NCBI GenBank assembly: GCA_007375595.1
Contig: VMEP01000001.1
Location: forward strand, 340,694-404,693
Direction: 5' to 3'
Length of the DNA stretch: 64,000 bases
Source of the DNA: Parcubacteria group bacterium LiPW_30
Lineage (GTDB): Bacteria > Patescibacteriota > Minisyncoccia > Phycocordibacterales > VMEP01
The notes under the pieces were generated by a model. It was not told the origin of the DNA. It saw nothing but the letters and a program-made list of their open reading frames with translations, and did not search any database. Of this stretch, positions 17,123 to 64,000 are shown piece after piece. The stretch's first letter is position 1, and every line of letters begins with the position of its first letter. Position numbers and translations under genes: made by a program.

Positions 17123-17950
17123 GTGCGTTCAGATATCTCCTCTGCTACAATGTCGCGCATGGAAAGCGAACTTATTTCTTTTTCAAACCACAAAAAAGAA
17201 ACTCTCCGTGGAATTTTCAAACGAGCCCCAGGGAGTACGGGGGTAATTTTTGCCCACGGTTTTGGTAGGACCTCCATGGAGCCAAAGTTCAAAAATATTG
17301 CCAACAAATTGGAAGGCAAGGAGAATCTTTTCTTTTTTGATTTTTCTGGATGTGGGCTATCTGAGGGGTCTTTTGAAGATATTACCGCAGATAAGCTCGC
17401 CAAGGAGCTTTCATGCGCCGTTTCTGCGTTTCGCGATAGGGTCCCAAGACTAAAAAGTATCCGGTTGGTTTCTCATAGTTTTGCTTGTGCTGCAACAATT
17501 ATTTTATGCGCACGAGAAAAAGATGTTTTTGACAAAATTGTATTTTTGGGACCAGCCCTTAACATGAGTGAGATTTTAAAATATTCCTTTGTAAGACGAC
17601 GTAATCCCGGCGGGAAAATTAACTGGTCAAACTATAAAAAACATTTTGATTTGCGGGCATATCAACGCGAAATGAAGAAAGATAAGCAAATGACTTATTC
17701 TCATTTTATTTCTAATCTTCACTATCTTGAAAATAAAGATAGAGATTACCGAGAATTAATGGGAATAATTCCAAAAGAAAAACTACTTATTGTTCAGGGT
17801 GATAGCGACAGGTCAATCCCACTTGAAAGTCAGGGCGCTTATTTAAAGAATTTTAAAACGATATTAGTTAAAGGAGGGGATCATGATCTTGAAAGACCTG
17901 ATGTGGTTGCAAAATACTTACCGCAAATAGTTTCTTTCCTGTCTTCTTAA
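17123..17950 (+). CDS. alpha/beta-hydrolase fold protein
   Basis: GVIFAHGFG oxyanion region; nucleophile-elbow-like LVSHSFACAA; Asp/His later. Confidence 0.55.
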   Translation: MRSDISSATMSRMESELISFSNHKKETLRGIFKRAPGSTGVIFAHGFGRTSMEPKFKNIANKLEGKENLFFFDFSGCGLSEGSFEDITADKLAKELSCAVSAFRDRVPRLKSIRLVSHSFACAATIILCAREKDVFDKIVFLGPALNMSEILKYSFVRRRNPGGKINWSNYKKHFDLRAYQREMKKDKQMTYSHFISNLHYLENKDRDYRELMGIIPKEKLLIVQGDSDRSIPLESQGAYLKNFKTILVKGGDHDLERPDVVAKYLPQIVSFLSS

Positions 17951-18004
17951 TGTATAAAAACGGCGGAGCGCGAAATGTTGACAAATACTGCGTTTAGGTG
18001 TATA

Positions 18005-18120
18005 GTACTAGAGAGGTTCTTTGAATTATAACTTGCGTTTGCCACAGCAGAAAGTGGCTTAATATATAGGCCTTTTTCTGCTATGGCAAACCTTCGCACG
18101 AAGGAGCCCTCTAGTACACA
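18005..18120 (+). promoter_or_regulatory. long imperfect hairpin (~115 nt) immediately upstream of the RBS of the 18133 gene
   Basis: gtactagagagg...ccctctagtac outer stem; gtttgccacagcagaaag...ctttttctgctatggcaaac inner stem. Confidence 0.35.
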
Positions 18121-18132
18121 AGGAGAAAGACA

Positions 18133-18771
18133 ATGGGACAAATCACCATCGACCAATCCCATCAGGTTCTTGCCACTCTGGCTGTGAATACTGACTGGAC
18201 AACGATTGACTTCACGAACTCGGGGCTTCAGGATTTCATCGTTCGCAACCCGAAGGAAGCTGGCAGACAGTTCACGGCGTTCCTCAAGAACGGCGGGAAG
18301 GTCCTCGTCGGCGAACCGAAGGTCATCACCATCAAACGTGGTCGCTTCAATCCAACCGAGTTCATCGGACAGGGCTGGAGCATCATTACGGACGAGACGG
18401 ACACTCGTTCCACGGCGCTCACCGAACTGGACCTCACCAAGATTCAGCAGGTGACGATGCTCAAGAGCGGCGAGACGTACGTGAAGGGCGAGGAGAAGCT
18501 CAGGCGTCTGAAGAAGTCGGGCAACATCCGACTGGACGCCGACGTCTTCCACACGCTGTGGGAGAACCAGCATCTCATCCCCGAGTCGTGGAAGGAGAAG
18601 GTGAACGGGAACACTCGGTTCATCTACTTTGACGGCACGGTCCTTCGGGACTCGGACGGTAGCCGTTACGTTCTGTACCTGTATTGGAGTGACGGTGCGT
18701 GGAACTGGTACGTGGGTTGGCTCGGCAACGACTGGTACGATCACAACCCGTCTGCCGTTCTCGCAAGTTAG
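18133..18771 (+). CDS. hypothetical protein (GC-rich) with a Trp/Tyr-rich C-terminal module
   Basis: SD aaggagaaagaca; C-terminus RYVLYLYWSDGAWNWYVGWLGNDWYDHNPSAVLAS is duplicated at 19128-19253. Confidence 0.5.
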   Translation: MGQITIDQSHQVLATLAVNTDWTTIDFTNSGLQDFIVRNPKEAGRQFTAFLKNGGKVLVGEPKVITIKRGRFNPTEFIGQGWSIITDETDTRSTALTELDLTKIQQVTMLKSGETYVKGEEKLRRLKKSGNIRLDADVFHTLWENQHLIPESWKEKVNGNTRFIYFDGTVLRDSDGSRYVLYLYWSDGAWNWYVGWLGNDWYDHNPSAVLAS

Positions 18772-19111
18772 TACTCGGGCTTTGGTCATTGGCACTTTTT
18801 GGAGCCTTTGACCTTTGTCTTCGGACCCTGCATCTGCTTACACAGATGTGCAGGGTCTTTTCGTATATAAAAATATCTATATAATAATTTGTGGCAGTAG
18901 GTGGATATCAGTGCGTGTTTACGGATGCGTACCACCGAACCCAGTATCCTTATATCCAGAGTATTTGAGATTACGGTTTCAGATAGCGTGGTGTATGTCA
19001 GACACTTCAAAAAATGAAGCTACTTGGTATAGCGTATTAAGGCATTACAATGCCGAAGACAGTGGAACACCCACAGACAACCTTGAGAGTATTCGAGGGG
19101 TGGTGATATGG

Positions 19112-19330
19112 ATGATGTGCTATACAATCCTTCGGAACTCGGACGGTAACCGTTACGTTCTGTACCTGTATTGGAATGACGGTGCGTGGAACTGGAACGT
19201 GAATTGGCTCGACAACGACTGGAACGATAACAACCCGTCTGCCGTTCTCGCAACTCTCTTCATTTCTCTCCGGCTTTCGCTGGAGAGTTTTGTTTTGTGC
19301 GTCTTTAAATTTTTAATATTTGTGTTATAG
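19112..19330 (+). pseudogene. partial duplicate of the C-terminal module of the 18133 gene (fragment or small paralogue)
   Basis: about 125 bp near-identical to 18641-18768, encoding NRYVLYLYWNDGAWNWNVNWLDNDWNDNNPSAVLA; upstream part of the ORF-track reading frame looks non-coding. Confidence 0.3.
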
Positions 19331-19378
19331 TATTTTGGTCTTGAACTGGGCAGTCGCCACGTGAGATAATTGCGCAAT

Positions 19379-19621
19379 ATGTATTACGTATATGTGTTGA
19401 AAGGCCCCAAGCAGTTTTATATAGGTTCCACCAACGATTTAAAAAGGAGATTTGCCGAACATCAATCTAATAAGTCTCTTTCGACGAAAAATCGTGGACC
19501 GTGGAGACTTGTATATTACGAAGCGTCTATATCAAAATCTGACACTTTGATTCGAGAGAATTATTTAAAAACTGCTTGGGGCAGACGATACTTAAAAAAT
19601 CGTATAAAAAATAGTGCATAG
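19379..19621 (+). CDS. small GIY-YIG nuclease-superfamily protein (UPF0213/YhbQ-like) nested in the rnpB P3 loop
   Basis: MYYVYVLKG...FYIGSTNDLKRRFAEHQ...WRLVYYE = GIY-YIG catalytic-domain signature; ORF exactly bounded by the 13-bp inverted repeats that form P3. Confidence 0.75.
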   Translation: MYYVYVLKGPKQFYIGSTNDLKRRFAEHQSNKSLSTKNRGPWRLVYYEASISKSDTLIRENYLKTAWGRRYLKNRIKNSA

Positions 19622-24491: not shown

Positions 24492-25406
24492 TCATTTCGC
24501 TTTTGCGGGAACGAGCTTGAGCCACCGGATTGAAACGAACTCGTAGTTGACGAAGCCGAGTACTGCCCCGACGACCGCACCGAGGACGGCGCTTCCGAGG
24601 GAGAAACCGACGACAGCACCAAGCGTTGCGTCGACGAAACAGAGCGTTCGGCGTTCGGAATGAACGTAAACGAAAGTCCGCACGACGAAACGCCAGGTCT
24701 CCCTGCAGAGGAAATAGGCTAGCGTGACGATGGCGTCCATGATGCGCGCCTTATTTTCCCAGAGATACTCGCCGACACCGCAAAGCGTGTGCGCGAAGAG
24801 CCACAACAGAAAAAACGGCAGGATGATTGGGTTGCCGTATTTGAAGACGAGCAACCCCATGGACATATCACGAGAGAGAAATTCTTGGTACGAGCCTTTT
24901 GTGTCGTAGTCCAATTTTTGCCAGTATTTTTTCTTGTTGGTGAACGGCCAGAAAAGCGCGCCGACGACCAACATGGTCGTAACAAGATAGAAACCGACCC
25001 CCACCCCAGAAATGAGACTGTGAACCACAGGCTCATTTTCTGGGGCGGGCCACTCGAGGTAAGAAAATATTGCGTGGGACATCAAGGCGAAAGACGTTGC
25101 GAGCGCCAAAAGCCCCAACACCGACGCAGCCGTCGCTTTCCAATACAGCGGATATCGCTTCCATGTGGTTGCCCTATGGTACGCACTAGCGACATTGCCG
25201 GCGCTTACGCGATACGAACGGGCGACACCGGCGCAGAAGTTCTGGAAGTCCACCGCACAGTAGGCAACAAGACCGCCGAAGATCGCGCCGACACCCCAGA
25301 AGTACGAGCCGTACTCGAAGCGCGCCGAGATTTCAATGGCGCTTAAGGCACCAATAAAGGCGCCAAGAGCACAGGCAAACATTACGGACAAAGATTCCTT
25401 TTTCAT
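24492..25406 (-). CDS. hypothetical integral membrane protein (GC-rich island)
   Basis: SD ggagg + ATG (MKKESL); multiple TM helices; GC-rich. Confidence 0.5.
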   Translation of the reverse strand: MKKESLSVMFACALGAFIGALSAIEISARFEYGSYFWGVGAIFGGLVAYCAVDFQNFCAGVARSYRVSAGNVASAYHRATTWKRYPLYWKATAASVLGLLALATSFALMSHAIFSYLEWPAPENEPVVHSLISGVGVGFYLVTTMLVVGALFWPFTNKKKYWQKLDYDTKGSYQEFLSRDMSMGLLVFKYGNPIILPFFLLWLFAHTLCGVGEYLWENKARIMDAIVTLAYFLCRETWRFVVRTFVYVHSERRTLCFVDATLGAVVGFSLGSAVLGAVVGAVLGFVNYEFVSIRWLKLVPAKAK

Positions 25407-25540
25407 GGTGTTCCTCCATTCGTTTAGGTTGTGACTCACTAACAAAGAGCCGATTTAACACGTTTACTGTCTCGTAACGTATAACGTTTACAGATCTTTG
25501 TCAACGCACCAAAAAAGTATGCTAAAATACGGCTCAATTT

Positions 25541-46981: not shown

Positions 46982-48361
46982 TTAACGGTCTTTTATCTTT
47001 TTTATGTAGTCTGCAAGCTCGTCTATTTTTACTGTGTCTTGTGAGCGTGTGGCCATGTCGCGGACAATAACCGTGCCTTCGAGTGCTTCTTTTTGGCCGA
47101 AAATGACAGTATAAGGGACCTCGAGTCGTTCGGCTGTTGCAAGTTGGGCAGAAAGGTTGTCTTTGGCTAGGGTTTGAGCCATAGGGATTCTTGCTTTGCG
47201 AAGTATTTCTACGATGGCGAGGCTTTTTAGTTTTGCTTCAAAACCAAGCTGAATGAAACAGACTTTCGGTTTTTTAATGATACGAGGGGAGAGTGGTTTG
47301 TGGTGTTTGGACATAATAATTCTATCTACCCCAATACTTCCGCCGATAGAGGGAACATCTTTTTTAGAACCAAGAAGTTTTCCAAGATAGTCATATCTTC
47401 CGCCACCAGCAAGTGAAAGGGGCTGTCGTTCAATATTTTCTGTTTTTTCTTCAGTTACTATTTCTCCATTTTCTCCGACAATAGGAACTTCTTCCTCTGG
47501 TATTTCCAAAAATTCAAAAACAGTTTTTGTGTAATAGCTCAAGCCACGAACAAGATTGTGGTTAATTCGATAAGGAATACCCATCTCCTCTAAATACTCA
47601 AGCACTTCTTTGAAGTGTGATTTACAGGAGCTACAAAGGAAGCTCATTGAGTTTGGTGCAGATTCTTTTACGACTGCGCATTTTTCGTTTTTACAATCAA
47701 GTAAACGAAGAGGATTGGTTTTTAGTCGGTCGCGACAATTTCCACAAATATTATCTAAATGCTTTTTGTAATAATTCGTGAGTTCGCGAACGTATGCTGG
47801 GCGACAATCTTTATCTCCAATACTATTTATATCAAGAGAAATTTTTTCAATACCAGCTTCGCTTAGAATAGTGGAAAGCGTTTTGATAACAATCGCATCA
47901 GCAATACTTTTTTGAGTTCCTAATATTTCTAAACTGAATTGGCGTAATTCACGCAAACGTCCTTTTTGTGGGTTGTCGTGTCTAAAATATGGACCGTAAG
48001 AATAGAGCATTACCGGTTGTGGTAGTGCTTGCATTCCGTTTTCAATATAGGCGCGCATGATTCCGGCAGTTCCTTCTGGACGCATCGCCAAATGGTCGCC
48101 ACCTTTTGTTTTTAAGGTGTACATCTCCTTATCAATAATATCGGTGCCTTCGCCGATACCCGAAGTAAAGACCTCTTCTTTTTCAAGAATAGGAGTTTCT
48201 ATTGGCTTGAATCCATAATAGATAGCAATCTCTTGCGCTTTTTCAAAAAAACCTTGGTACTGATAATACTCATTGTCTACAATATCGCGCATCCCCTTTG
48301 GCGCATTTAAGGATTCTTTGTTTTGTTTTTTTTCTTGGTTCATATTTTTATTTAATTCCAC
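46982..48361 (-). CDS. hisS: histidyl-tRNA synthetase
   Basis: class II motif 2 region MRPEGTAGIMRAY; HisRS-specific GGGRYD. Confidence 0.85.
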   Translation of the reverse strand: MELNKNMNQEKKQNKESLNAPKGMRDIVDNEYYQYQGFFEKAQEIAIYYGFKPIETPILEKEEVFTSGIGEGTDIIDKEMYTLKTKGGDHLAMRPEGTAGIMRAYIENGMQALPQPVMLYSYGPYFRHDNPQKGRLRELRQFSLEILGTQKSIADAIVIKTLSTILSEAGIEKISLDINSIGDKDCRPAYVRELTNYYKKHLDNICGNCRDRLKTNPLRLLDCKNEKCAVVKESAPNSMSFLCSSCKSHFKEVLEYLEEMGIPYRINHNLVRGLSYYTKTVFEFLEIPEEEVPIVGENGEIVTEEKTENIERQPLSLAGGGRYDYLGKLLGSKKDVPSIGGSIGVDRIIMSKHHKPLSPRIIKKPKVCFIQLGFEAKLKSLAIVEILRKARIPMAQTLAKDNLSAQLATAERLEVPYTVIFGQKEALEGTVIVRDMATRSQDTVKIDELADYIKKIKDR

Positions 48362-48980
48362 CTGGGTAATAGGAGATACGAGTTGGTGGAAAAAGCCGGA
48401 GAAGAGCTTCCCCGATTATTGCATCGCGTCTCACTGGACCAACTATTCTTGAGTCGAGCGAGACCGGACGGTTATCTCCCATAACAAAGTACTGGTCATT
48501 TCCTAATGTTGCTTCAAAGTCGCTTGTTTTAATGTTTGTTAAATAAGGTTCAGAAATAATTAACCCGTCAGGGTTTTCTTTATTTATTACAGTAAGAACA
48601 TTATTTTTATAACGCAAAGTTTCCCCTGGTAACCCCATTATTCGTTTAATTAAATTTTCAGAAGTATTGCCTGGCTTTTTAACAATAACAACATCACCTC
48701 TTTCTGGGTTATTAAAGCGATATGAAATTTCATCAACGATTAAGTATTCGCCAGTTTCAAATGTTGGAGACATTGAAACGCCTTTTACGATAAATGGCTG
48801 GGCGATAAAGTATCGGAACGGAAGAACGATAAGTGCGGCAATAATTGCAAAACGGAAAAGTTCTCCCCAGAGTGACTCCGAAGGTTTTTCTTTTTCGCTT
48901 TCGTTGATAGTCGGTGGCGTATTTTTTTCCCACTCAGTCATATTGTTTGCGAATGATACTACGTTTTTGTGTATTGACAC
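48348..48980 (-). CDS. lepB: signal peptidase I
   Basis: catalytic Ser box GVSMSPTF; Lys box; VMGDNRPVSLDSR. Confidence 0.8.
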   Translation of the reverse strand: MSIHKNVVSFANNMTEWEKNTPPTINESEKEKPSESLWGELFRFAIIAALIVLPFRYFIAQPFIVKGVSMSPTFETGEYLIVDEISYRFNNPERGDVVIVKKPGNTSENLIKRIMGLPGETLRYKNNVLTVINKENPDGLIISEPYLTNIKTSDFEATLGNDQYFVMGDNRPVSLDSRIVGPVRRDAIIGEALLRLFPPTRISYYPGGIK

Positions 48981-51725: not shown

Positions 51726-52674
51726 AATAATTAATTAAAAAAATCCGCCACCTTTATGGGTGAAGCAGATTATTTCCCAGATTCGCTTGTGTACTACTTA
51801 AACTGGAGCCAAGCGAGGTTAACTGAGAAATCCGCTATTAATGACAAGAAGGTAACATAAAAGCCCCAAAAACTCAATATTCATGATTTTACTTTTCCTT
51901 TTTAAAAACACGATAAAATTCTGCTGAATTTTTCTATACTCACGCCGAGCGTTCCGTAATGTTTTTAAAAAGGAAAAGCTTTAGTTTTTTTGAATAAAAA
52001 ACAACAAAAAGAAAATAAAAATTCTAAATAAAAAAAGTTAAAAGCCCGCAATGATGCGGGCTCCCCCAATTCGGCTTTTACGGTCGTCTGGGGGGACGAC
52101 GATAGGGCTCGTTTCGGCGCATGGCGGTCTCCATTGTGTGGACATGCCGTTTCGGGTTTTTGTCAGGAACCCGAAATTAAACAACTACCTCCTTTTTGTT
52201 GTTGAAGATGTGAATGAGGATACGGCCGGGGCAACGCGCTGTCGCCCCGGCCTCCCCAAACGCGGGAGAGTTTCCCGCGAACAGTCGTCCGCCGATGGCG
52301 TTATCCCAAGATGGGACAGGCCGAGCGAGGCGTGACGGCTGGTGCTACCCCAACTTTCGTTGGGTCTTGCTGGCTTGCCGCCGGCCTGGTTTCAGGTCGC
52401 GCCGGCGCTGCCGAGCTTCTTCTCGATGATGGCCTTGCCCTTGTCGTCGATGGCGTTATGGAATACATTCCTCTTTGCCGTTGCCGGCGGGCTGTGCACT
52501 TGCATGGGGGGGGCTCCTTTCAGAACTTCAACTTTTGGTTTTTAGGTTAGAAACCAAGGGTACCAAACTGCCCCTTTTTGAAACGTGCTGCTAGGGAAAA
52601 GGTTAGCACACAGCCATGTTATTGTCAATAGCCAAAATATCCTTTATTTAAAGGATATTTTGGTATATTAACGT

Positions 52675-57760: not shown

Positions 57761-58294
57761 ATGGCATTTCTAGTACCAGACGAGATTATAAAAAGCCTTC
57801 CTCTTGAAAACGGAATGATAGTTGCAGATATAGGAGCCGGCTCTGGTGCGTTTGCAATTCCTCTTGCTCGCAATGTTGGTGATGGTGGTAAGGTCTATGC
57901 AATTGATATAAACAAAGAAGTCTTGGTTAAGATAAAAAAGGATGCAAAAGAAGCCAACCTTTCAAACGTAGAAATTATTTGGGCAAATGCTGAGGTTAAA
58001 GACGGAACGAAGCTTTCCGATAATTCAGTTGATTTTGTTTTAGTCTCCAATCTTCTTTTCCAGGCAGAAGATAAAAAAGGTTTAGTTGAAGAGATTAGCC
58101 GAATCCTAAAACCAAAAGGAATGATTGCAGTTATAGAATGGAAGGGGTCATTTGGCGGGATTGGTCCAAAAGAGAGCGCAGTCGTTAGCGAAAGCGAAGC
58201 GCAGAAACTTTTTAGTGATTCTTTGTTTGCGGAGTATAATAAATTTAACGCCGGAGATTATCATTACGGGGTTGTTTTTGTAAAAATTAAATGA
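57761..58294 (+). CDS. class I SAM-dependent methyltransferase
   Basis: motif I VADIGAGSGAFAIPLA; acidic residue after beta2. Confidence 0.65.
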   Translation: MAFLVPDEIIKSLPLENGMIVADIGAGSGAFAIPLARNVGDGGKVYAIDINKEVLVKIKKDAKEANLSNVEIIWANAEVKDGTKLSDNSVDFVLVSNLLFQAEDKKGLVEEISRILKPKGMIAVIEWKGSFGGIGPKESAVVSESEAQKLFSDSLFAEYNKFNAGDYHYGVVFVKIK

Positions 58295-59595
58295 AACCTT
58301 TTCAAATTATTGTTCTCTTGATTTTTGGTGTTTTCCTAGTAATTGGAGTGCTTATTTTTTCTGGGATTATAAAACTTCCCGGTGGTGGTGATAATAGTGG
58401 TGTTTCTGGTGAGGTTGTTATTTGGGGAACACTACCTAATTCGTATTTTGATAAATTATTGAGCGATTTTAATTTGGCCCACCAAAAGGAATCTTTCTCG
58501 GTTCGCTATGTAGAAAAAGACAAAACAACATTTGATAATGATTTAGTTGAGGCGATAGCAGCGAACGTTGGCCCAGATTTGGTGTTTTTGCCACAAGATT
58601 TAATTTTGAGACACGTTAGTAAAATATATCCGCTCCCATTAACAACAATTTCCGAGCGCGATTTCAAAGATATGTTTATTGAAGAGGGGGAATTATTCTT
58701 CTTTAATGGAAACGCGATTGCAATACCGTTTACGATTGATCCAATAATGCTTTATTGGAATCGGGATTCTTTTTCGGCGGCTGGTTTTTCCAAACCACCA
58801 CAATACTGGGAAGAGTTTATGGCTATAGTTCCACAACTAACAACCAAAGATAGCGCCACCAATATCACCAAAAGTGCGCTTGCTTTTGGTGAAGCAAAAA
58901 ATATTTTAAACGCGAAAGACATTTTATCGATGCTCATAATGCAAGCGGGGAGTAAAATAGTCGCATATTCTCCGGAGAAAGGAGTTGAGGTTTCTTTAGG
59001 TCAAAATAACACAAGTGGACTTAGGGCGGGCGAAGCAGCACTCCAGTTTTATACCGAGTTTTCTAATCCTGTTAAGCAACATTATTCTTGGAATAAATCA
59101 CTTCCATCCTCTCGAAATATGTTTTTGTCGGGAGATTTAGCTATGTACTTTGGATATGCAAGTGAAATTTTGGATTTGAGGGCACGCAACCCGCATTTGA
59201 ATTTTGATGTTGCGATGGTCCCACAGTCAAAAGGTGTTAATAAAAAAATAACGTTCGGAAGAATGCACGGACTCGCAGCTCTTAAGAGTTCAAAGAATTT
59301 AACCACAGCGCTTTATGTCGAGGTTCTTTTGTCTCAAGCTGATTTTATGAAGAATATTCCGGAGCGTTCTTACCTACCGCCAACTCGCCGTGATTTACTT
59401 CAAGTTCGACCTTCCGATCCGTATCTTTCTATTTTTTATGATTCAGCCATTATTTCAAACGCATGGCTTGATCCAGCGCCAAAGGAAACAACAGCTATTT
59501 TTGCTAGTATGATTGATAACGTTGTTTCAGGTAGATTCAGACCACAAGAAGCCGTTTCCGATACCGCCTCACAATTAGAAAAACTTGTAAAATAA
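58291..59595 (+). CDS. extracellular solute-binding protein (ABC-transporter SBP-like), membrane-anchored
   Basis: N-terminal TM anchor, about 430 aa, alpha/beta pattern typical of SBP_bac_1/8; weak. Confidence 0.45.
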   Translation: MKPFQIIVLLIFGVFLVIGVLIFSGIIKLPGGGDNSGVSGEVVIWGTLPNSYFDKLLSDFNLAHQKESFSVRYVEKDKTTFDNDLVEAIAANVGPDLVFLPQDLILRHVSKIYPLPLTTISERDFKDMFIEEGELFFFNGNAIAIPFTIDPIMLYWNRDSFSAAGFSKPPQYWEEFMAIVPQLTTKDSATNITKSALAFGEAKNILNAKDILSMLIMQAGSKIVAYSPEKGVEVSLGQNNTSGLRAGEAALQFYTEFSNPVKQHYSWNKSLPSSRNMFLSGDLAMYFGYASEILDLRARNPHLNFDVAMVPQSKGVNKKITFGRMHGLAALKSSKNLTTALYVEVLLSQADFMKNIPERSYLPPTRRDLLQVRPSDPYLSIFYDSAIISNAWLDPAPKETTAIFASMIDNVVSGRFRPQEAVSDTASQLEKLVK

Positions 59596-59598
59596 AAT

Positions 59599-60006
59599 AT
59601 GAAAATAAGTAAAAATTTTTGGATAGCGAGAAAAATAGCAATTACTACGTTTGTGGCATTTGTGATTTTTTCACCGCTTACTGTTTTAGGGGCAGGGCTT
59701 GTTCCTTGTGACGGTGTTAATGTTAAGTGTGACTACAATCAGCTAGTTATGCTTGCTCAAAAAATTATTAGATTTTTACTTGAGGCGTCTGTGATTATTG
59801 CGATGCTTTTATTTACTTATGCTGGGTTCCAATTAGCATTTAGTGGTGGAGATACAGGTGCTATGGCAAAAGCTAAAGCAGTATTTTTTAGCGCAGCAAA
59901 AGGTTTAATTATTGCACTTGCGGCTTGGCTTATTGTTGAGACAATTCTTAGAGTGCTTCTTAAGGGTGAAGGTTTTGGACAATATATTCCGCTTGGGGGT
60001 TTTTAA
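59599..60006 (+). CDS. pilin-like small membrane protein (VirB2/TrbC-like topology), paralogue 1 of 5
   Basis: signal/TM segment, hydrophilic spacer, then two TM helices separated by a short loop. Confidence 0.45.
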   Translation: MKISKNFWIARKIAITTFVAFVIFSPLTVLGAGLVPCDGVNVKCDYNQLVMLAQKIIRFLLEASVIIAMLLFTYAGFQLAFSGGDTGAMAKAKAVFFSAAKGLIIALAAWLIVETILRVLLKGEGFGQYIPLGGF

Positions 60007-60019
60007 TGTATAATTATTT

Positions 60020-60439
60020 ATGAATAATTTAAACTTAAATAAATTGACGAAAAGAATTCAAACGAAGAAGTTTTATACTTTATTGGCAGCAAGCCTAGTT
60101 ATCTTTTTTGCTGTTTTGACTCCTTTATTTGTTGACGCTCAGACGGCGAGTGGGCAGAGAGAAGCTACAAAATTACAAAATCCACTTGGCAGTGGTAACG
60201 ACAGTCTCACTGCTTTTGCTAACTCTGTTGTTGATGCTGTGGTTACTGTTGGCTTACCAATTGCCGCGTTAATGATTGTTTACTCTGGTTTTCTTTTTGT
60301 TGCAGCAAGGGGGAATGAAACCAAGCTTAAAGACGCAAAAAATGCTTTCCTTTATGCTGTTATCGGTATTGCTATAATTTTGGCTGCAAAAGTTTTATCG
60401 GAGGTTATAAGGGGAACAATAGACGCCTTAAGAGGTTGA
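60020..60439 (+). CDS. pilin-like small membrane protein, paralogue 2
   Basis: same architecture; signal peptide ending VDA|QT; TM1 VVTVGLPIAALMIVYSGFLFV, TM2 LYAVIGIAIILAAKVL. Confidence 0.45.
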   Translation: MNNLNLNKLTKRIQTKKFYTLLAASLVIFFAVLTPLFVDAQTASGQREATKLQNPLGSGNDSLTAFANSVVDAVVTVGLPIAALMIVYSGFLFVAARGNETKLKDAKNAFLYAVIGIAIILAAKVLSEVIRGTIDALRG

Positions 60440-60452
60440 TTAATAAATAATT

Positions 60453-60866
60453 ATGAAAATTATGAAAAAGGGAAATTTTTTAGTTTTGGGGTTGTTAGGG
60501 TTAGTAATGGTTCCGTCGGTTGTGTATGGAATCTCTAGTTTGACTGGTCTTATAGAGTTCCTTACAAATTCTATAATTATGCCAATCATTGGGCTTATTG
60601 GCGCACTTGCTGTTTTATTTTTCTTGTGGGGAGTTATGAAGTTTATTAAAGATGCAGACAATGAAACTAAGAGGGCTGAAGGACGACAATTCATACTTTA
60701 CGGCATTATTGGGCTTTTTGTTATGGTCTCTGTTTACGGTCTTGTTAGGGTTTTGGAAAATACCTTCCAGTTACCGGTTACTAATAATTCGACGAGAAAC
60801 ACAAATGTGGTAAATACAACGGCGCCGGGTGCGACATATAATAACCGCAACGCTCAAATGGAATAA
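60453..60866 (+). CDS. pilin-like small membrane protein, paralogue 3
   Basis: shares FILYGIIGLFVMVSVYGLVRVLENTF block with paralogues 4 and 5; N/T-rich C-terminal tail. Confidence 0.45.
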   Translation: MKIMKKGNFLVLGLLGLVMVPSVVYGISSLTGLIEFLTNSIIMPIIGLIGALAVLFFLWGVMKFIKDADNETKRAEGRQFILYGIIGLFVMVSVYGLVRVLENTFQLPVTNNSTRNTNVVNTTAPGATYNNRNAQME

Positions 60867-61027
60867 TTGTAAAGTTATTGAACTGTTAGGGTGACCATGA
60901 TGTTGAAATGGCGGCTTGGCTAATGATTCTTTTATCCCCAGACTAGTCGGAAAAAGAAGCAGTCTTGTGTTAAAATAAGAGAGAATTTAATAAAGTCGTT
61001 TAATTAGTATTAATTTTTAGAAATATA

Positions 61028-61444
61028 TTGCGTATGAAAAAAGTAGTTACATTAGTAGCAGCATCAGCACTTCCTGTAGTTGCTCTTGCTCAGACAGTAG
61101 ATGCCATTTTTAGTAAGATTATAACGCTCATTAATTACCTAACGATTATTGTTGTGGCGTTATCTGTTTTGGCGTTTTTCTGGGGTTTGTTTAAGTTTAT
61201 TACCAAGGCAGGAGAAGACAAAGAGGAGGGTCGCCACATAATGATTTGGGGAATCCTCGCACTATTTGTTATGGTTTCTGTTTGGGGTCTTGTTGGTGTT
61301 GTCGGGAATACTTTCGGTGTGCAACAAGGAGGAGCAGTTAATATCCCAGGCATCGGTGGTTCTTACGGCGGTGTTAATACTGGTGGTACTGGAGTTTCTG
61401 GGGGAGTTAATGTCACAGGTGGTATTAATATTCCAATTCGATAA
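61028..61444 (+). CDS. pilin-like small membrane protein, paralogue 4 (Gly-rich C-terminal tail)
   Basis: IMIWGILALFVMVSVWGLVGVVGNTFG block; tail GGAVNIPGIGGSYGGVNTGGTGVSGGVNVTGG. Confidence 0.45.
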   Translation: MRMKKVVTLVAASALPVVALAQTVDAIFSKIITLINYLTIIVVALSVLAFFWGLFKFITKAGEDKEEGRHIMIWGILALFVMVSVWGLVGVVGNTFGVQQGGAVNIPGIGGSYGGVNTGGTGVSGGVNVTGGINIPIR

Positions 61445-61492
61445 TCTATAGACACGAAGCGCGCGATAGCGCGCTTTTGTCACTTGTAAAAA

Positions 61493-61765
61493 ATGATTGC
61501 TGAAGCTGCAACACAACTACAAAGCGGAGCAAACAGCCTTGTTCAAAAACTTGTTGTTAATATCTTAGACCCAATTACGGGATTATTAGGCTCACTTGCA
61601 ATAGCTTATTTTCTTTTCGGGGTACTTCAATACATAATGAATTCTGATAATGAAGACGGGATAGCTCGCGCAAAGAAGTATATGATGTGGGGTCTTATTG
61701 GTTTGTTTATTATGGTTAGCGCATGGGGGATTATAAACCTCATTGAAGGAAGTCTTCCAAGGTAA
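61493..61765 (+). CDS. pilin-like small membrane protein, paralogue 5 (shortest)
   Basis: YMMWGLIGLFIMVSAWGIINLIEG block. Confidence 0.4.
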   Translation: MIAEAATQLQSGANSLVQKLVVNILDPITGLLGSLAIAYFLFGVLQYIMNSDNEDGIARAKKYMMWGLIGLFIMVSAWGIINLIEGSLPR

Positions 61766-61879
61766 GATTTAAATAATCCAGAATTAAAAAATAGTCTCGG
61801 CGAAAGTTGAGGCTATTTTGCTTTTTGGGCAAAGAAAAAGGGCGGGCGCATTACTGCGTCCGCCCGTTTGACGACGAAT

Positions 61880-62341
61880 TTATATCTGGAGCCCCATCTT
61901 GATTGGCGTTGTTTCCCCGTCGTCGAGGATAACGCAAACCCTTTCTCCACCTTCGAAGTTTCGCATGATCCGTTGTTTTGGACCAACACGCGCCACATAT
62001 CCGTCGGGGTAGATGAACTTGACGTTCCCTTCCTTCCCGATTGGGTAGATAGTGAACGGCCCAACTGGGATGGTAAAACATGAGGGAAAGTCGGCCGTGA
62101 CCAGGATCTCAGTAGGGTTTCGTGGTGCCGCTGGACCACGCGCGATTTCCTCGGCTTTGGCTTTTTCAGCCTCGGCGCGATACTCCTTCACGTAGTCTTT
62201 TCCAGACCAGTATAGTGGGATGACAAGAAGGATGATGACGGGCCACTTCGCCGCTTTTTTGATGAAATTAAGCGGTTTCTGGCTTTCGGCCACTATCCCA
62301 GCTTCCTTTGTTCGGCTTTCGTGTGTATCTGTCGTTGCCAT
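61880..62341 (-). CDS. NfeD-like membrane protein (putative partner of the adjacent SPFH protein)
   Basis: N-terminal TM plus C-terminal beta-rich domain; gene order SPFH-NfeD typical of stomatin operons; GC-rich. Confidence 0.4.
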   Translation of the reverse strand: MATTDTHESRTKEAGIVAESQKPLNFIKKAAKWPVIILLVIPLYWSGKDYVKEYRAEAEKAKAEEIARGPAAPRNPTEILVTADFPSCFTIPVGPFTIYPIGKEGNVKFIYPDGYVARVGPKQRIMRNFEGGERVCVILDDGETTPIKMGLQI

Positions 62342-62356
62342 GATGACTCTCCTAAA

Positions 62357-63463
62357 TCATTTCTTAGGGAAAAGGCTAGTGAGGAAGTTGGCGACTGCGT
62401 TCATCCCTTCGCCTCTTATTTCCTGAACATTGTGTTGAATGGTTTTGGTGGTATTTTTATTGACCACCAGCGCCGCTTCCATTGCTTCCGCATCGGTAAT
62501 CGGCTTACCACCATCCGCGCCTTTTTCTTGAAGCGTTTTGGCTGTTTCCTTGATCTTCTTTGCGGTTTCTCTCGCAGACAACGCCTGTTGAAACACAGGG
62601 TCATAGTCGACGTCGGAAATTGCAACGAGAATCAGGTCAATGCCGTACTTCTCTTCATACGAAGCGAGCTTGGGATCCTCGTGCCTTTCAAGCGCTTCCC
62701 TCCTTTCCTTGTCGAGAGCGTTTATGGACTTGAGATACTCGTCAATTTTTTTGATTACAAGCTTCTCCCGTTTTTTTCTGACTTCTTCCTCGGTGCCACC
62801 GGGCAATGTTGCGGGCATCTGCAGGTCCAAGGACAACTCATGTTCATAGTGACCCTTCATGCAACCTTCAATGCGCTTGATGTTTTTTCGAGCAGTTTCG
62901 GCGGTGAGGTTGGCAATAATCTGCGCGAGAAAACTCGAGCCGATGTCATGCAAACCGCGATCAATCACTGTCTTGTCGACGGCGATATACTTGCCGATAT
63001 TGCCCTTCATTCCCCGGTACTGGAAACTCCACACCACATGGAGCATTACGCCGTCGAGGGCGGGATATGTTTCCCCTTTCTCGAATTCTTTGGCGAATAT
63101 CCTCAGGTTTATGTAGTTTCCAGACTTTGTTTGTTCCCAAGGGTACTTGAAATGAATCCCCGTTGGGTATTCTTTGAGCTCTCCACCGAAAAGATTGACC
63201 GTAATAAGTGAGGTCACTTCGGGGACGGACACAAGAAAGTAGGGAAGGAAATGGCTTACGGCTAAGAGCCAGAAGCCGAACGAAAACCAACTGTTGTATT
63301 TTTGGAACAGCATCATGCCAAGTTCGTTGAAAACTAAACCAAGCAGAAGGTTGATGACCAAATACACAACTACTGAAAACGACAACAGAAAAGTAATTTC
63401 TGGTGCCTTTTCCCAGCGGAACAGGTTGACTGGTCCGTCTTTTGAAACAGTGGTAGTAGCCAT
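62357..63463 (-). CDS. SPFH/band-7 (stomatin/HflK/C-like) domain membrane protein
   Basis: N-terminal TM helices; GIHFKYPW and KYGIDLILVAISDVDYDPVFQQALSARETA match SPFH blocks; coiled-coil C-terminus. Confidence 0.65.
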   Translation of the reverse strand: MATTTVSKDGPVNLFRWEKAPEITFLLSFSVVVYLVINLLLGLVFNELGMMLFQKYNSWFSFGFWLLAVSHFLPYFLVSVPEVTSLITVNLFGGELKEYPTGIHFKYPWEQTKSGNYINLRIFAKEFEKGETYPALDGVMLHVVWSFQYRGMKGNIGKYIAVDKTVIDRGLHDIGSSFLAQIIANLTAETARKNIKRIEGCMKGHYEHELSLDLQMPATLPGGTEEEVRKKREKLVIKKIDEYLKSINALDKERREALERHEDPKLASYEEKYGIDLILVAISDVDYDPVFQQALSARETAKKIKETAKTLQEKGADGGKPITDAEAMEAALVVNKNTTKTIQHNVQEIRGEGMNAVANFLTSLFPKK

Positions 63464-63577
63464 GATGACTCCTTTTCAATGTGCGTTTAGCTAGGCGAAA
63501 TACCAAGCTATTACTGTCTATCATTATACATAAAATGACCAAAAAGTCAAGGTGGGGAAGGGGGTTATAAAATGAAA

Positions 63578-63836
63578 AGAGGGAGACTCGGTCAGGGGTA
63601 AAATTCAAGAAGAGATGGAGACCCGGTCATGAATAATTTTGAAGACAAAATAAGTTCACATAGATTGTGAGGAGAGATTCGGTCAAGAACATTTTTACTC
63701 GTCGTCACTCGTAAAAATTTCTCGACCCTGCTCGTTCGACCATTTCTGCTGAAATGGTACCCGAACTCGCTTTCGAGTCTCCCCTCCGAGCAACAAACAA
63801 AATCACCCGATGTTTTCACATCGGGTTCTTTGTTTG
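63578..63836 (-). repeat. array downstream of tRNA-Leu: terminator, inverted copy of the tRNA 3' end, E2-type element, and three degenerate direct copies of the tRNA-Leu 3' end
   Basis: ttcgagtctcccctccgagca (63773-63793) is an inverted copy; gagggagactcggtca (63578-), gatggagacccggtca (63613-), gaggagagattcggtca (63669-) are degenerate direct copies of ggaggggagactcg; E2 core ctcgaccctgctcgttcgaccatttctgctgaaatgg. Confidence 0.55.
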
Positions 63837-63921
63837 TGGTGCTGGAGGGGAGACTCGAACTCCCAAGCCTTGCGGCACTAGTTCCTAAGACTAGCGCGTA
63901 TACCAATTCCGCCACTCCAGC
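63837..63921 (-). tRNA. tRNA-Leu (anticodon TAG), class II, CCA encoded
   Basis: revcomp GCTGGAGTGGCGGAATTGGTA..CTTAGGA anticodon loop..long variable arm..GGGAGTTCGAGTCTCCCCTCCAGCACCA. Confidence 0.8.
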
Positions 63922-63954
63922 ATGTTTTTAAATTGTAAAAAATTAATTTAACTT

Positions 63955-64000
63955 ACCTAGCTTGTCGTCACGGATATTTTTCTGCTGAAAAATTCCGCGA
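63955..64000 (-). repeat. partial long-form tRNA-associated repeat (truncated by the window end)
   Basis: gtcacggatatttttctgctgaaaaattccgcga parallels gtcacagatattttcctgctggaaaattctgcga of copies A and B. Confidence 0.5.

Follow-up and report, generated by a model that had tools for sequence, protein, structure and literature searches.

Introduction

The VirB2-like pilins of type IV secretion systems (T4SSs) were surveyed across the Patescibacteria by Quinonero-Coronel et al. (2025; PMC12102498), who screened 3,035 genomes with the Pfam models PF18895 and PF04956. They found such pilins in 1,948 VirB4-positive assemblies, close to virB4 in 1,135 of these, and described 441 arrays of 2 to 11 divergent pilin genes each, from 383 assemblies. 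Here, we analyze one array of this kind, five consecutive genes that we call p1 to p5, in Parcubacteria group bacterium LiPW_30. The array lies in a stretch of 64,000 nucleotides (contig VMEP01000001.1, positions 340,694 to 404,693 of the forward strand), which we refer to as the window. The assembly, GCA_007375595.1, is a Paceibacteria genome of 780,595 bp with 790 coding sequences (CDSs), and Table S1 of PMC12102498 records it as “Presence of VirB4: Yes,” as it does C7867-005, which carries an orthologous array. According to that listing, LiPW_30 does possess a secretion ATPase, whose absence the preliminary description of this locus had named as grounds for doubting a pilin array. Since LiPW_30 is listed as VirB4-positive, the parent ATPase would be encoded outside the window.

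The feature is of a known kind, because both PMC12102498 and PMC10633639 describe such arrays; the former catalogued them with the same Pfam model, and LiPW_30 is in the surveyed dataset. Our array shares with the catalogued ones its Pfam family, its phylum, and its tandem divergent paralogs, which are 17% to 39% identical to one another, compared with a reported mean of 25% and a maximum of 54% (PMC12102498). It comes from the Paceibacteria, whereas arrays are reported to be commonest in Microgenomatia and Saccharimonadia. In Southlakia epibionticum, transposon sequencing (Tn-seq) showed that a predicted pilin series within the T4SS cluster is essential (Wang et al. 2023; PMC10633639), and a review from 2025, which puts the number of sequence-divergent VirB2-like pilins in Southlakia at six, finds it an intriguing possibility that the T4SS of a monoderm might bear a pilus (PMC12857230). 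The six-gene array of S. epibionticum ML1 is located inside the T4SS locus, whereas the LiPW_30 array is located outside one, in a block composed of gyrA, a methyltransferase (MTase) gene, a solute-binding-protein (SBP) gene, the array itself, and a gene for an SPFH protein.

Three further groups of proteins invite comparison. The TrbC/VirB2 family (PF04956), which includes Agrobacterium VirB2, RP4 TrbC, pKM101 TraM, and F TraA, resembles the array proteins in small size, a long leader (predicted here), hairpin, and charged loop; p2 alone exceeds the threshold of this family, and pKM101 TraM is the best PDB sequence match of a profile of the array's own family. TrbC/VirB2 systems are diderm, whereas the LiPW_30 host is a monoderm without VirB5, an outer-membrane core, or adjacent virB3 and virB4. 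Proteins of the Mbov_0395 family have an 80-residue leaderless core with two transmembrane (TM) helices, like p5, which passes the family cut-off, and a Pontibacillus example lies beside a VirB4-like ATPase. Their genes are single and reside inside T4SS loci of mobile elements, in contrast to the five chromosomal paralogs of LiPW_30, four with predicted leaders and two with long tails, which have no mobile-element context. Finally, the virB2 paralogs of Anaplasma, Bartonella, and Rickettsia are likewise tandem and divergent and are proposed to serve in surface variation. The LiPW_30 paralogs are instead ancient ordered types under purifying selection rather than recent amplifications, and the partner cell is presumably a bacterium, whereas those pathogens face an animal immune system.

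We consider it reasonably probable that the products of the five genes are VirB2-like pilin subunits of a Patescibacteria-type T4SS. The array does not represent a new kind of system; it is encoded away from virB4 and comprises differentiated subunits in an ancient order, of which one is probably major and several are minor. What the locus adds is incremental: a conserved genomic context, ordered paralog types, a last paralog without a signal, a separate p4 unit, and putative allele replacement in p3 and p5. The main text of PMC12102498 describes neither the ordered types nor a last gene without a signal nor a p4 unit of its own. Patescibacteria account for much of bacterial diversity and apparently live attached to host cells, and in the single genetically tractable species the T4SS and its pilin array are essential.

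The five proteins belong to a curated pilin family

The preliminary description had reported five consecutive genes on one strand encoding 135, 139, 137, 138, and 90 aa, and open reading frames (ORFs) of these sizes lie exactly where it placed them (Table 1). Gene callers differ on the start of p4, which we place at the TTG at 61028 (138 aa) and others at the ATG at 61034 (136 aa). The p2 protein is 100% identical to NCBI protein LiPW30_409, and near-identical contigs are known from Hainich groundwater. Mutual homology is clearest between p3 and p5 (39% identity, E 1e-22) and between p3 and p4 (34%, E 2e-18), and it extends to the pairs p1-p2 (29%, E 1e-7) and p2-p3 (25%, E 2e-7). The sequence block that had been proposed as common to p3, p4, and p5 holds at 17 of its 18 positions and fails at the first; the pattern as originally written matches p3 only, and the same regular expression without its first position matches all three. 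When every ORF of 60 aa or more in the window was searched with a hidden Markov model of the five paralogs, no additional copy came to light.

All five proteins exceed the gathering cut-off of PF18895, T4SS_pilin (26.6 bits), with scores of 49.0 bits for p2, 43.7 for p5, 38.0 for p3, 32.1 for p4, and 26.9 for p1, which barely passes. Precomputed PF18895 matches on orthologs concur. Against PF04956, TrbC/VirB2 (gathering cut-off 27.9 bits), p2 reaches 30.5 bits, p5 remains below the cut-off at 15 bits, and p1, p3, and p4 have no match at E up to 1. The NCBIfam model NF045849 (Mbov_0395 family pilin-like conjugal transfer protein, cut-off 40 bits) is passed by p5 at 42.5 bits; p3 (29.8 bits), p2 (28.8 bits), and p4 (16.5 bits) fall below it, and p1 has no match. 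The assignment to VirB2/TrbC-type pilins, originally made from topology, is supported by these profile searches.

These proteins are part of a very large and already curated family. A profile of the five paralogs retrieved more than 600 proteins, nearly all of them annotated with PF18895, and one of the listed matches is named “pilin” by NCBI; an exhaustive profile search with an E threshold of 1e-3 brought up 80,900 cluster representatives. A tblastn search of plasmids with p2 yielded two weak matches. The informative one of them comes from a Pontibacillus plasmid; this weak relative carries the annotation of a pilin-like conjugal transfer protein and is encoded 4 kb from a VirB4-like ATPase (CD1110-type locus) and a peptidoglycan hydrolase. 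Many members of the family carry 2 to 17 tandem T4SS_pilin modules in one polypeptide, such as P0232 (1775 aa, 17 stretches) and P0212 (1147 aa, 11 stretches), and a 446-aa multi-module gene (L023:7248-8588) heads the array of a Niyogibacteria locus. Such proteins could be true poly-pilin fusions or artefacts of gene calling or genetic code.

We also considered a relationship to type IV or Flp pilins and rejected it. No N_methyl or Flp Pfam family was matched by any of the five proteins at E up to 1, PHROGs likewise yielded no match to such pilins, and both the G↓F/M-T-L-I-E N-methylation motif (cleavage at the arrow) and the Flp motif are absent from the five sequences.

Architecture of the array proteins

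The common N-terminal signal or TM segment that had been ascribed to all five proteins is found in p1 to p4. In p5, hydropathy reveals two hydrophobic segments, with no N-terminal signal or TM segment ahead of them. A longer p5 ORF is ruled out by an in-frame TAA 3 nt upstream of its ATG, and the signal-less form recurs in p5 orthologs of 75 to 104 aa. Leaders were predicted with a simple heuristic (positive n-region, h-region, and small residues at −3 and −1), which finds these features in p1 to p4; p5 is leaderless. The candidate signal-peptidase sites are AXA-like, namely VLGA↓G in p1, VDA↓Q in p2, VYG↓I in p3, and ALA↓Q in p4, the last being canonical.

Behind the leader, the proteins differ more than had been described. 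A hydrophilic stretch of about 30 aa is not common to all copies, being about 20 aa long in p2 and reduced to a few residues in p3 and p4; in p1, two Cys follow directly behind the leader (LVPCDGVNVKCDY). The variable C-terminal tails, one of them Gly-rich and one Asn/Thr-rich, do agree in composition with the preliminary description: the 43-aa tail of p4 contains 15 Gly, and the 33-aa tail of p3 contains 8 Asn together with 6 Thr. Among orthologs, the tail of p3 is hypervariable and completely different, and p2 and p5 are practically tail-less.

The core of the proteins is a hairpin in which a short polar loop connects two hydrophobic helices, as seen in hydropathy and in AlphaFold2 (AF2) models of p2 and p4. 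In p2, the model places helices at residues 6-41, 61-95, and 100-138, with a predicted local distance difference test score (pLDDT) above 90 from residue 70, and the latter two form the hairpin. In p4, helices span residues 22-58 and 63-93 (pLDDT 71-87), and the tail is disordered from residue 94 (pLDDT about 48-59). Both models correspond to a leader helix followed by a two-helix hairpin.

Ancient paralog types under purifying selection

For comparison, we used a set of 13 distinct loci (L009, L011, L014-L021, and L023-L025), taking 10 kb around the array proteins. A paralog tree of 45 proteins from 9 arrays showed that the p1-, p2-, p4-, and p5-type proteins each form a clade spanning many loci. 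The types also follow a fixed order along the arrays: an optional p1-type gene with its Cys pair, a p2-type gene (LQNPLG, TrbC-like), one to three p3/p4-type genes, and a p5-type gene at the end. The p1 type occurs in 5 of the 9 arrays, the p2 type in all of them, and the p5 type also in all of them and always last.

Ratios of nonsynonymous to synonymous substitution rates (dN/dS) were 0.07 to 0.28 for the five paralogs, with p1 at 0.16 to 0.28, compared with 0.01 to 0.02 for gyrA and 0.03 to 0.07 for the SBP gene. All five genes are maintained under relaxed but clear purifying selection. The most conserved paralog is p4, which is 87% to 96% identical to its counterparts in L011, L014, and L015 and has the lowest dN/dS (0.07 to 0.09). 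Because each protein exceeds a curated Pfam threshold, orthologs occur in the same order at 12 other loci, and dN/dS lies in the range given above, the five ORFs are real genes and not chance ORFs. Positive selection was considered as a driver of the divergence and rejected on the same whole-gene values, which are gene-wide averages.

Comparison with L014 revealed a different pattern for two of the genes. The gyrA product is 99.6% identical between the two loci (synonymous divergence, dS, 0.33), and dS of p1, p2, and p4 resembles that of neighboring genes. The p3 proteins are only 64% identical, with a dS of 1.30, and the p5 proteins 83%, with a dS of 0.92 (L014 counterparts at L014:8003-8407 and L014:8981-9253). 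This high dS despite a near-identical gyrA suggests recombinational allele replacement of p3 and p5. The metagenome-assembled genomes behind L014 and L015, both representatives in GTDB, carry near-identical copies of the locus, with SBPs 98% and 85% identical to that of LiPW_30. They are labeled “uncultured Candidatus Saccharibacteria bacterium,” and LiPW_30 belongs to the Paceibacteria, so the labels are probably wrong.

It had been suggested that the array could generate antigenic or adhesive variation of a surface filament. The tails do vary, and that of p3 changes most among orthologs, in keeping with this suggestion; the paralogs themselves are ancient, ordered, and under purifying selection, which is not. 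Because they constitute ancient ordered orthologous types maintained by purifying selection, a set of differentiated subunits fits better than a variation cassette.

Transcription signals suggest a separate p4 unit

The genes leading into the array are tightly packed, with a 4-nt overlap between the MTase and SBP genes, 3 nt between the SBP gene and p1, and 13 nt each between p1 and p2 and between p2 and p3. This tight spacing suggests that the first five genes (MTase, SBP, p1, p2, and p3) are co-transcribed, and the MTase gene is probably the first of the transcription unit that enters the array. Between p3 and p4 there is a spacer of 161 nt, and in an alignment of four loci its proximal ~100 nt are better conserved than the p3 CDS. 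This conserved part, which carries the extended −10-like sequence TGTTAAAAT, would comprise the p4 promoter and 5′ untranslated region. A sigma-70 consensus scan did not flag TGTTAAAAT and performed no better than on shuffled sequence; for that reason, the promoter call rests on conservation.

The terminator-like hairpin directly after p4 is kept in four loci, in L011 with compensatory changes (ACGCGCC...GGCGCGT), and p5 would therefore appear to be expressed by read-through. Two more hairpins separate p5 from the convergent orf153. The second of them is GC-rich (GGGCGGGCGC...GCGTCCGCCC). Conservation of both, with compensatory changes, extends to L011, L014, and L015, and together they look like a terminator region serving both directions of transcription. 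Searches of the p3-p4 spacer and the array flanks for an RNA element returned only Rfam noise. With a promoter-like spacer and a terminator of its own, which would make it monocistronic, and with the highest conservation, p4 is the candidate for a major subunit.

Table 1. Coordinates of the array genes, their putative transcription signals, and other features of the window
Feature	Position	Strand	Size	Description
p1	59599-60006	+	135 aa	Pilin-like paralog; hairpin, short Gly-rich end
p2	60020-60439	+	139 aa	Most VirB2/TrbC-like; long leader, LQNPLG motif, hairpin, tail-less
p3	60453-60866	+	137 aa	Leader, hairpin, 33-aa Asn/Thr-rich tail
p4	61028-61444	+	138 aa (TTG start)	Leader, hairpin, 43-aa Gly-rich repeat tail (GGxN-like)
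p5	61493-61765	+	90 aa	Signal-less two-helix paralog, tail-less, last gene of the array
Conserved part of p3-p4 spacer	60930-61033	+		Extended −10-like TGTTAAAAT at 60968-60976
Intrinsic-terminator-like hairpin	61461-61480	+		GCGCG-ATAG-CGCGC then TTTTG, directly after p4
Two hairpins between convergent p5 and orf153	61788-61866			First hairpin 61788-61819, then T-run
Class I SAM-dependent methyltransferase (MTase)	57761-58294	+	177 aa	Pfam Methyltransf_31/11/25, Ubie_methyltran, E down to 1e-18
Solute-binding-protein homolog (SBP)	58291-59595	+	434 aa	N-terminal TM anchor, distantly MalE/GacH-like
Convergent pair	61880-63463	-	153 aa and 368 aa	Membrane-anchored orf153 and SPFH/Band_7 protein
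Signal peptidase I gene	48348-48980			Within the window

A conserved genomic neighborhood

The array is embedded in a block, gyrA-MTase-SBP-array-SPFH, that is conserved across several Paceibacteria families. The genes gyrA, MTase, and SBP precede the array in 12 of the 13 loci, Kaiserbacteria and Niyogibacteria genomes included, down to identities of about 60% for gyrA and 38% for SBP, and the MTase gene is kept between gyrA and the SBP gene in the same proportion (12/13). Behind the array, a convergent small membrane protein and an SPFH/Band_7 protein follow in 7 of the 13. In the Lloydbacteria locus L024, the Band_7 pair is retained and gyrA-MTase-SBP is missing; in the Niyogibacteria locus L023, the SBP gene is retained and Band_7 is missing. 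Each of the two links thus outlasts a rearrangement that removes the other.

The SBP matches the Pfam families SBP_bac_8 (65 bits) and SBP_bac_1 (46 bits), and its PDB sequence matches are GacH, trehalose/maltose-binding protein, and MalE (E 5e-9 to 1e-3); no permease gene is adjacent. The Band_7 protein is recognized by Pfam at 39 bits, and orf153 matched no Pfam family. Elsewhere, the window holds Patescibacteria housekeeping genes, including gyrA, ftsZ/ftsA, valS, lepA, murJ, and signal peptidase I.

Several minor features were seen around the array in this and other loci. In L024, the gene of a 1636-aa Peptidase_S74 / Ig-like surface protein (L024:1-4907) takes the position of gyrA-MTase-SBP next to the array. 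In L020, a further and longer protein containing T4SS_pilin, of at least 277 aa (L020:19558-20351), follows clpB, 9 kb from the array. With a GC content of 47%, the region of the Band_7 operon (62001-64000) clearly exceeds the genome average. A tRNA-Leu gene on the minus strand (63837-63921) forms its end, and several metagenome contigs break off right there.

Proposed mechanism and alternative readings

Building on the family membership, fold, selection, synteny, and transcription signals described above, we infer leader cleavage, VirB4 dependence, filament formation, and a division into major and minor subunits, which would work together as follows. The p1 to p4 proteins would be made with Sec-type leaders, inserted into the membrane, and cut by signal peptidase I, and p5 would be inserted leaderless. 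The mature proteins, two-helix hydrophobic hairpins with a short charged loop, would be stored as a membrane pool, from which a VirB4 ATPase and a VirB6/VirB3-like platform encoded elsewhere would extract them. Subunits would then polymerize into a filament or conduit through the wall toward the host cell. Solved pili of the VirB2 family have the charged loop on the side of the lumen and both termini on the outside. By analogy, the same orientation would apply here and would put the disordered tails, Gly-rich and Asn/Thr-rich, on the surface. Separately and strongly expressed, p4 would be the major subunit, with p1, p2, p3, and p5 serving as minor, initiating, or tip subunits, and p3 would bear the fastest-changing exposed tail. 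This mechanism predicts that p4 is the most abundant paralog and that p3 presents a variable epitope at the surface; the SBP gene and the array may be expressed together.

Several observations weigh against a T4SS pilus built from these subunits. As the preliminary description had noted for VirB4 and VirD4, T4SS machinery genes are absent from the 64-kb window, and none was found within 10 kb of the array in the 13 loci; since no such gene is near, the VirB4 dependence of the array is a family-level association only. The structural evidence discriminates poorly, as helical hairpins generally do: Foldseek found no significant match in the PDB for either the p2 or the p4 model. By sequence, a profile of 73 family members has the pKM101 TraM pilin (8cw4) as its best PDB match, which is marginal (E 0.0097) and lies partly over the leader, and a PDB search with the five-paralog profile returned only noise from G-protein-coupled receptors. 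The major-subunit role suggested for p4 draws on transcription signals and conservation. In the literature, the role of the Patescibacteria T4SS is termed completely unknown (PMC11665869), and no pilus of such a system has been reported (PMC11665869, PMC12857230).

A first alternative is a T4SS component that forms no extended pilus, which is possible though in our view unlikely. The proteins would then make up an element of a monoderm-type (MPF-FATA-like) machine, namely a short stalk or channel that spans the membrane or the wall, presumably the role of the related Mbov_0395-family proteins in Mycoplasma integrative and conjugative elements and Firmicute conjugation loci. That p5 passes NF045849, that p2 and p3 reach 29-30 bits with the same model, and that the Firmicute relative is located in a VirB4 (CD1110-type) locus all point in this direction, as does the kinship of Patescibacteria VirB4 with the monoderm MPF-FATA class, whose members are mostly pilus-less (PMC12102498, PMC10633639). 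However, a simple channel lining would appear to require less than leaders, exposed tails that are long and variable, and a set of five to six differentiated paralogs, and p2 passes the threshold of TrbC/VirB2, a family whose solved members form pili. A more radical idea detaches the array from VirB4 altogether and makes it an envelope module with the SBP and the SPFH/Band_7 pair, which would capture or import host-derived glycans, the hairpins providing the membrane or fiber part. The SBP gene immediately upstream, its persistence across 12 of 13 loci even at 38% identity, the survival of the Band_7 pair in L024 and of the SBP in L023 after loss of the other partner, and the lack of a nearby permease or virB4 gene would all be explained, and the linkage of the SBP and SPFH genes to the array is unmentioned in the main text of PMC12102498. 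Nevertheless, we regard such a module as improbable. Synteny in the lineage covers the whole stretch between the S1-domain gene and the array, so the linkage of SBP and array may merely mirror inherited gene order; family-wide, pilin genes are close to virB4 in 1,135 of 1,948 assemblies (PMC12102498); and no known transporter has subunits of this kind. The specific form of the idea, in which one Paceibacteria lineage possesses a virB4-independent chromosomal module of MTase, SBP, ordered pilin-like subunits, and SPFH scaffold acting as a fiber or conduit for glycan capture or import, is more doubtful still; if true, it would be a new use of VirB2-type subunits.

It is very improbable, finally, that the five genes code for holins, bacteriocin immunity proteins, stress proteins, or other small membrane proteins that are unrelated to pilins and share nothing but two-TM topology with them. 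Two-TM hairpins are common, Foldseek gave no pilin match, and some sources attach spurious names to orthologs, for example “FtsH-binding integral membrane protein.” Yet all five proteins exceed a curated pilin threshold, neither Pfam nor PHROGs contained a holin or immunity match, and there is no phage or toxin context. The single weak PHROGs match is of p2 to a family of unknown function. We therefore rejected an origin from holins or phages. The preliminary description had named holins and bacteriocin immunity proteins as assignments that would refute its own reading, and the alternative as a whole is largely refuted. VirB2-like subunits of a Patescibacteria-type T4SS remain the reading that we prefer.

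Other observations in the window

Away from the array, a gap of ~950 bp between the S1-domain gene and a major facilitator superfamily (MFS) gene (51726-52674) holds no convincing ORF. Its core (52026-52525) has a GC content of 54-69%, compared with 38% for the genome, and conservation extends to L015 (87%) and L011 (69-91%). For three sequences, RNAalifold predicts numerous GC-rich hairpins, in which 9-12 pairs have compensatory changes, and a hairpin resembling a terminator lies at the minus-strand 3′ end; there was no Rfam match and no tmRNA call for this interval. The gap may hold an undescribed structured RNA on the minus strand.

Two GC-rich islands, at 17947-19621 and 24492-25445, have a GC fraction of 0.46-0.48 compared with about 0.38. 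Their ORFs, of 282 aa (minus), 171 aa (plus), and 317 aa (minus), have no Pfam match, and a small ORF beside the islands (19370-19621) resembles a GIY-YIG nuclease by eye. These islands may have been acquired horizontally.

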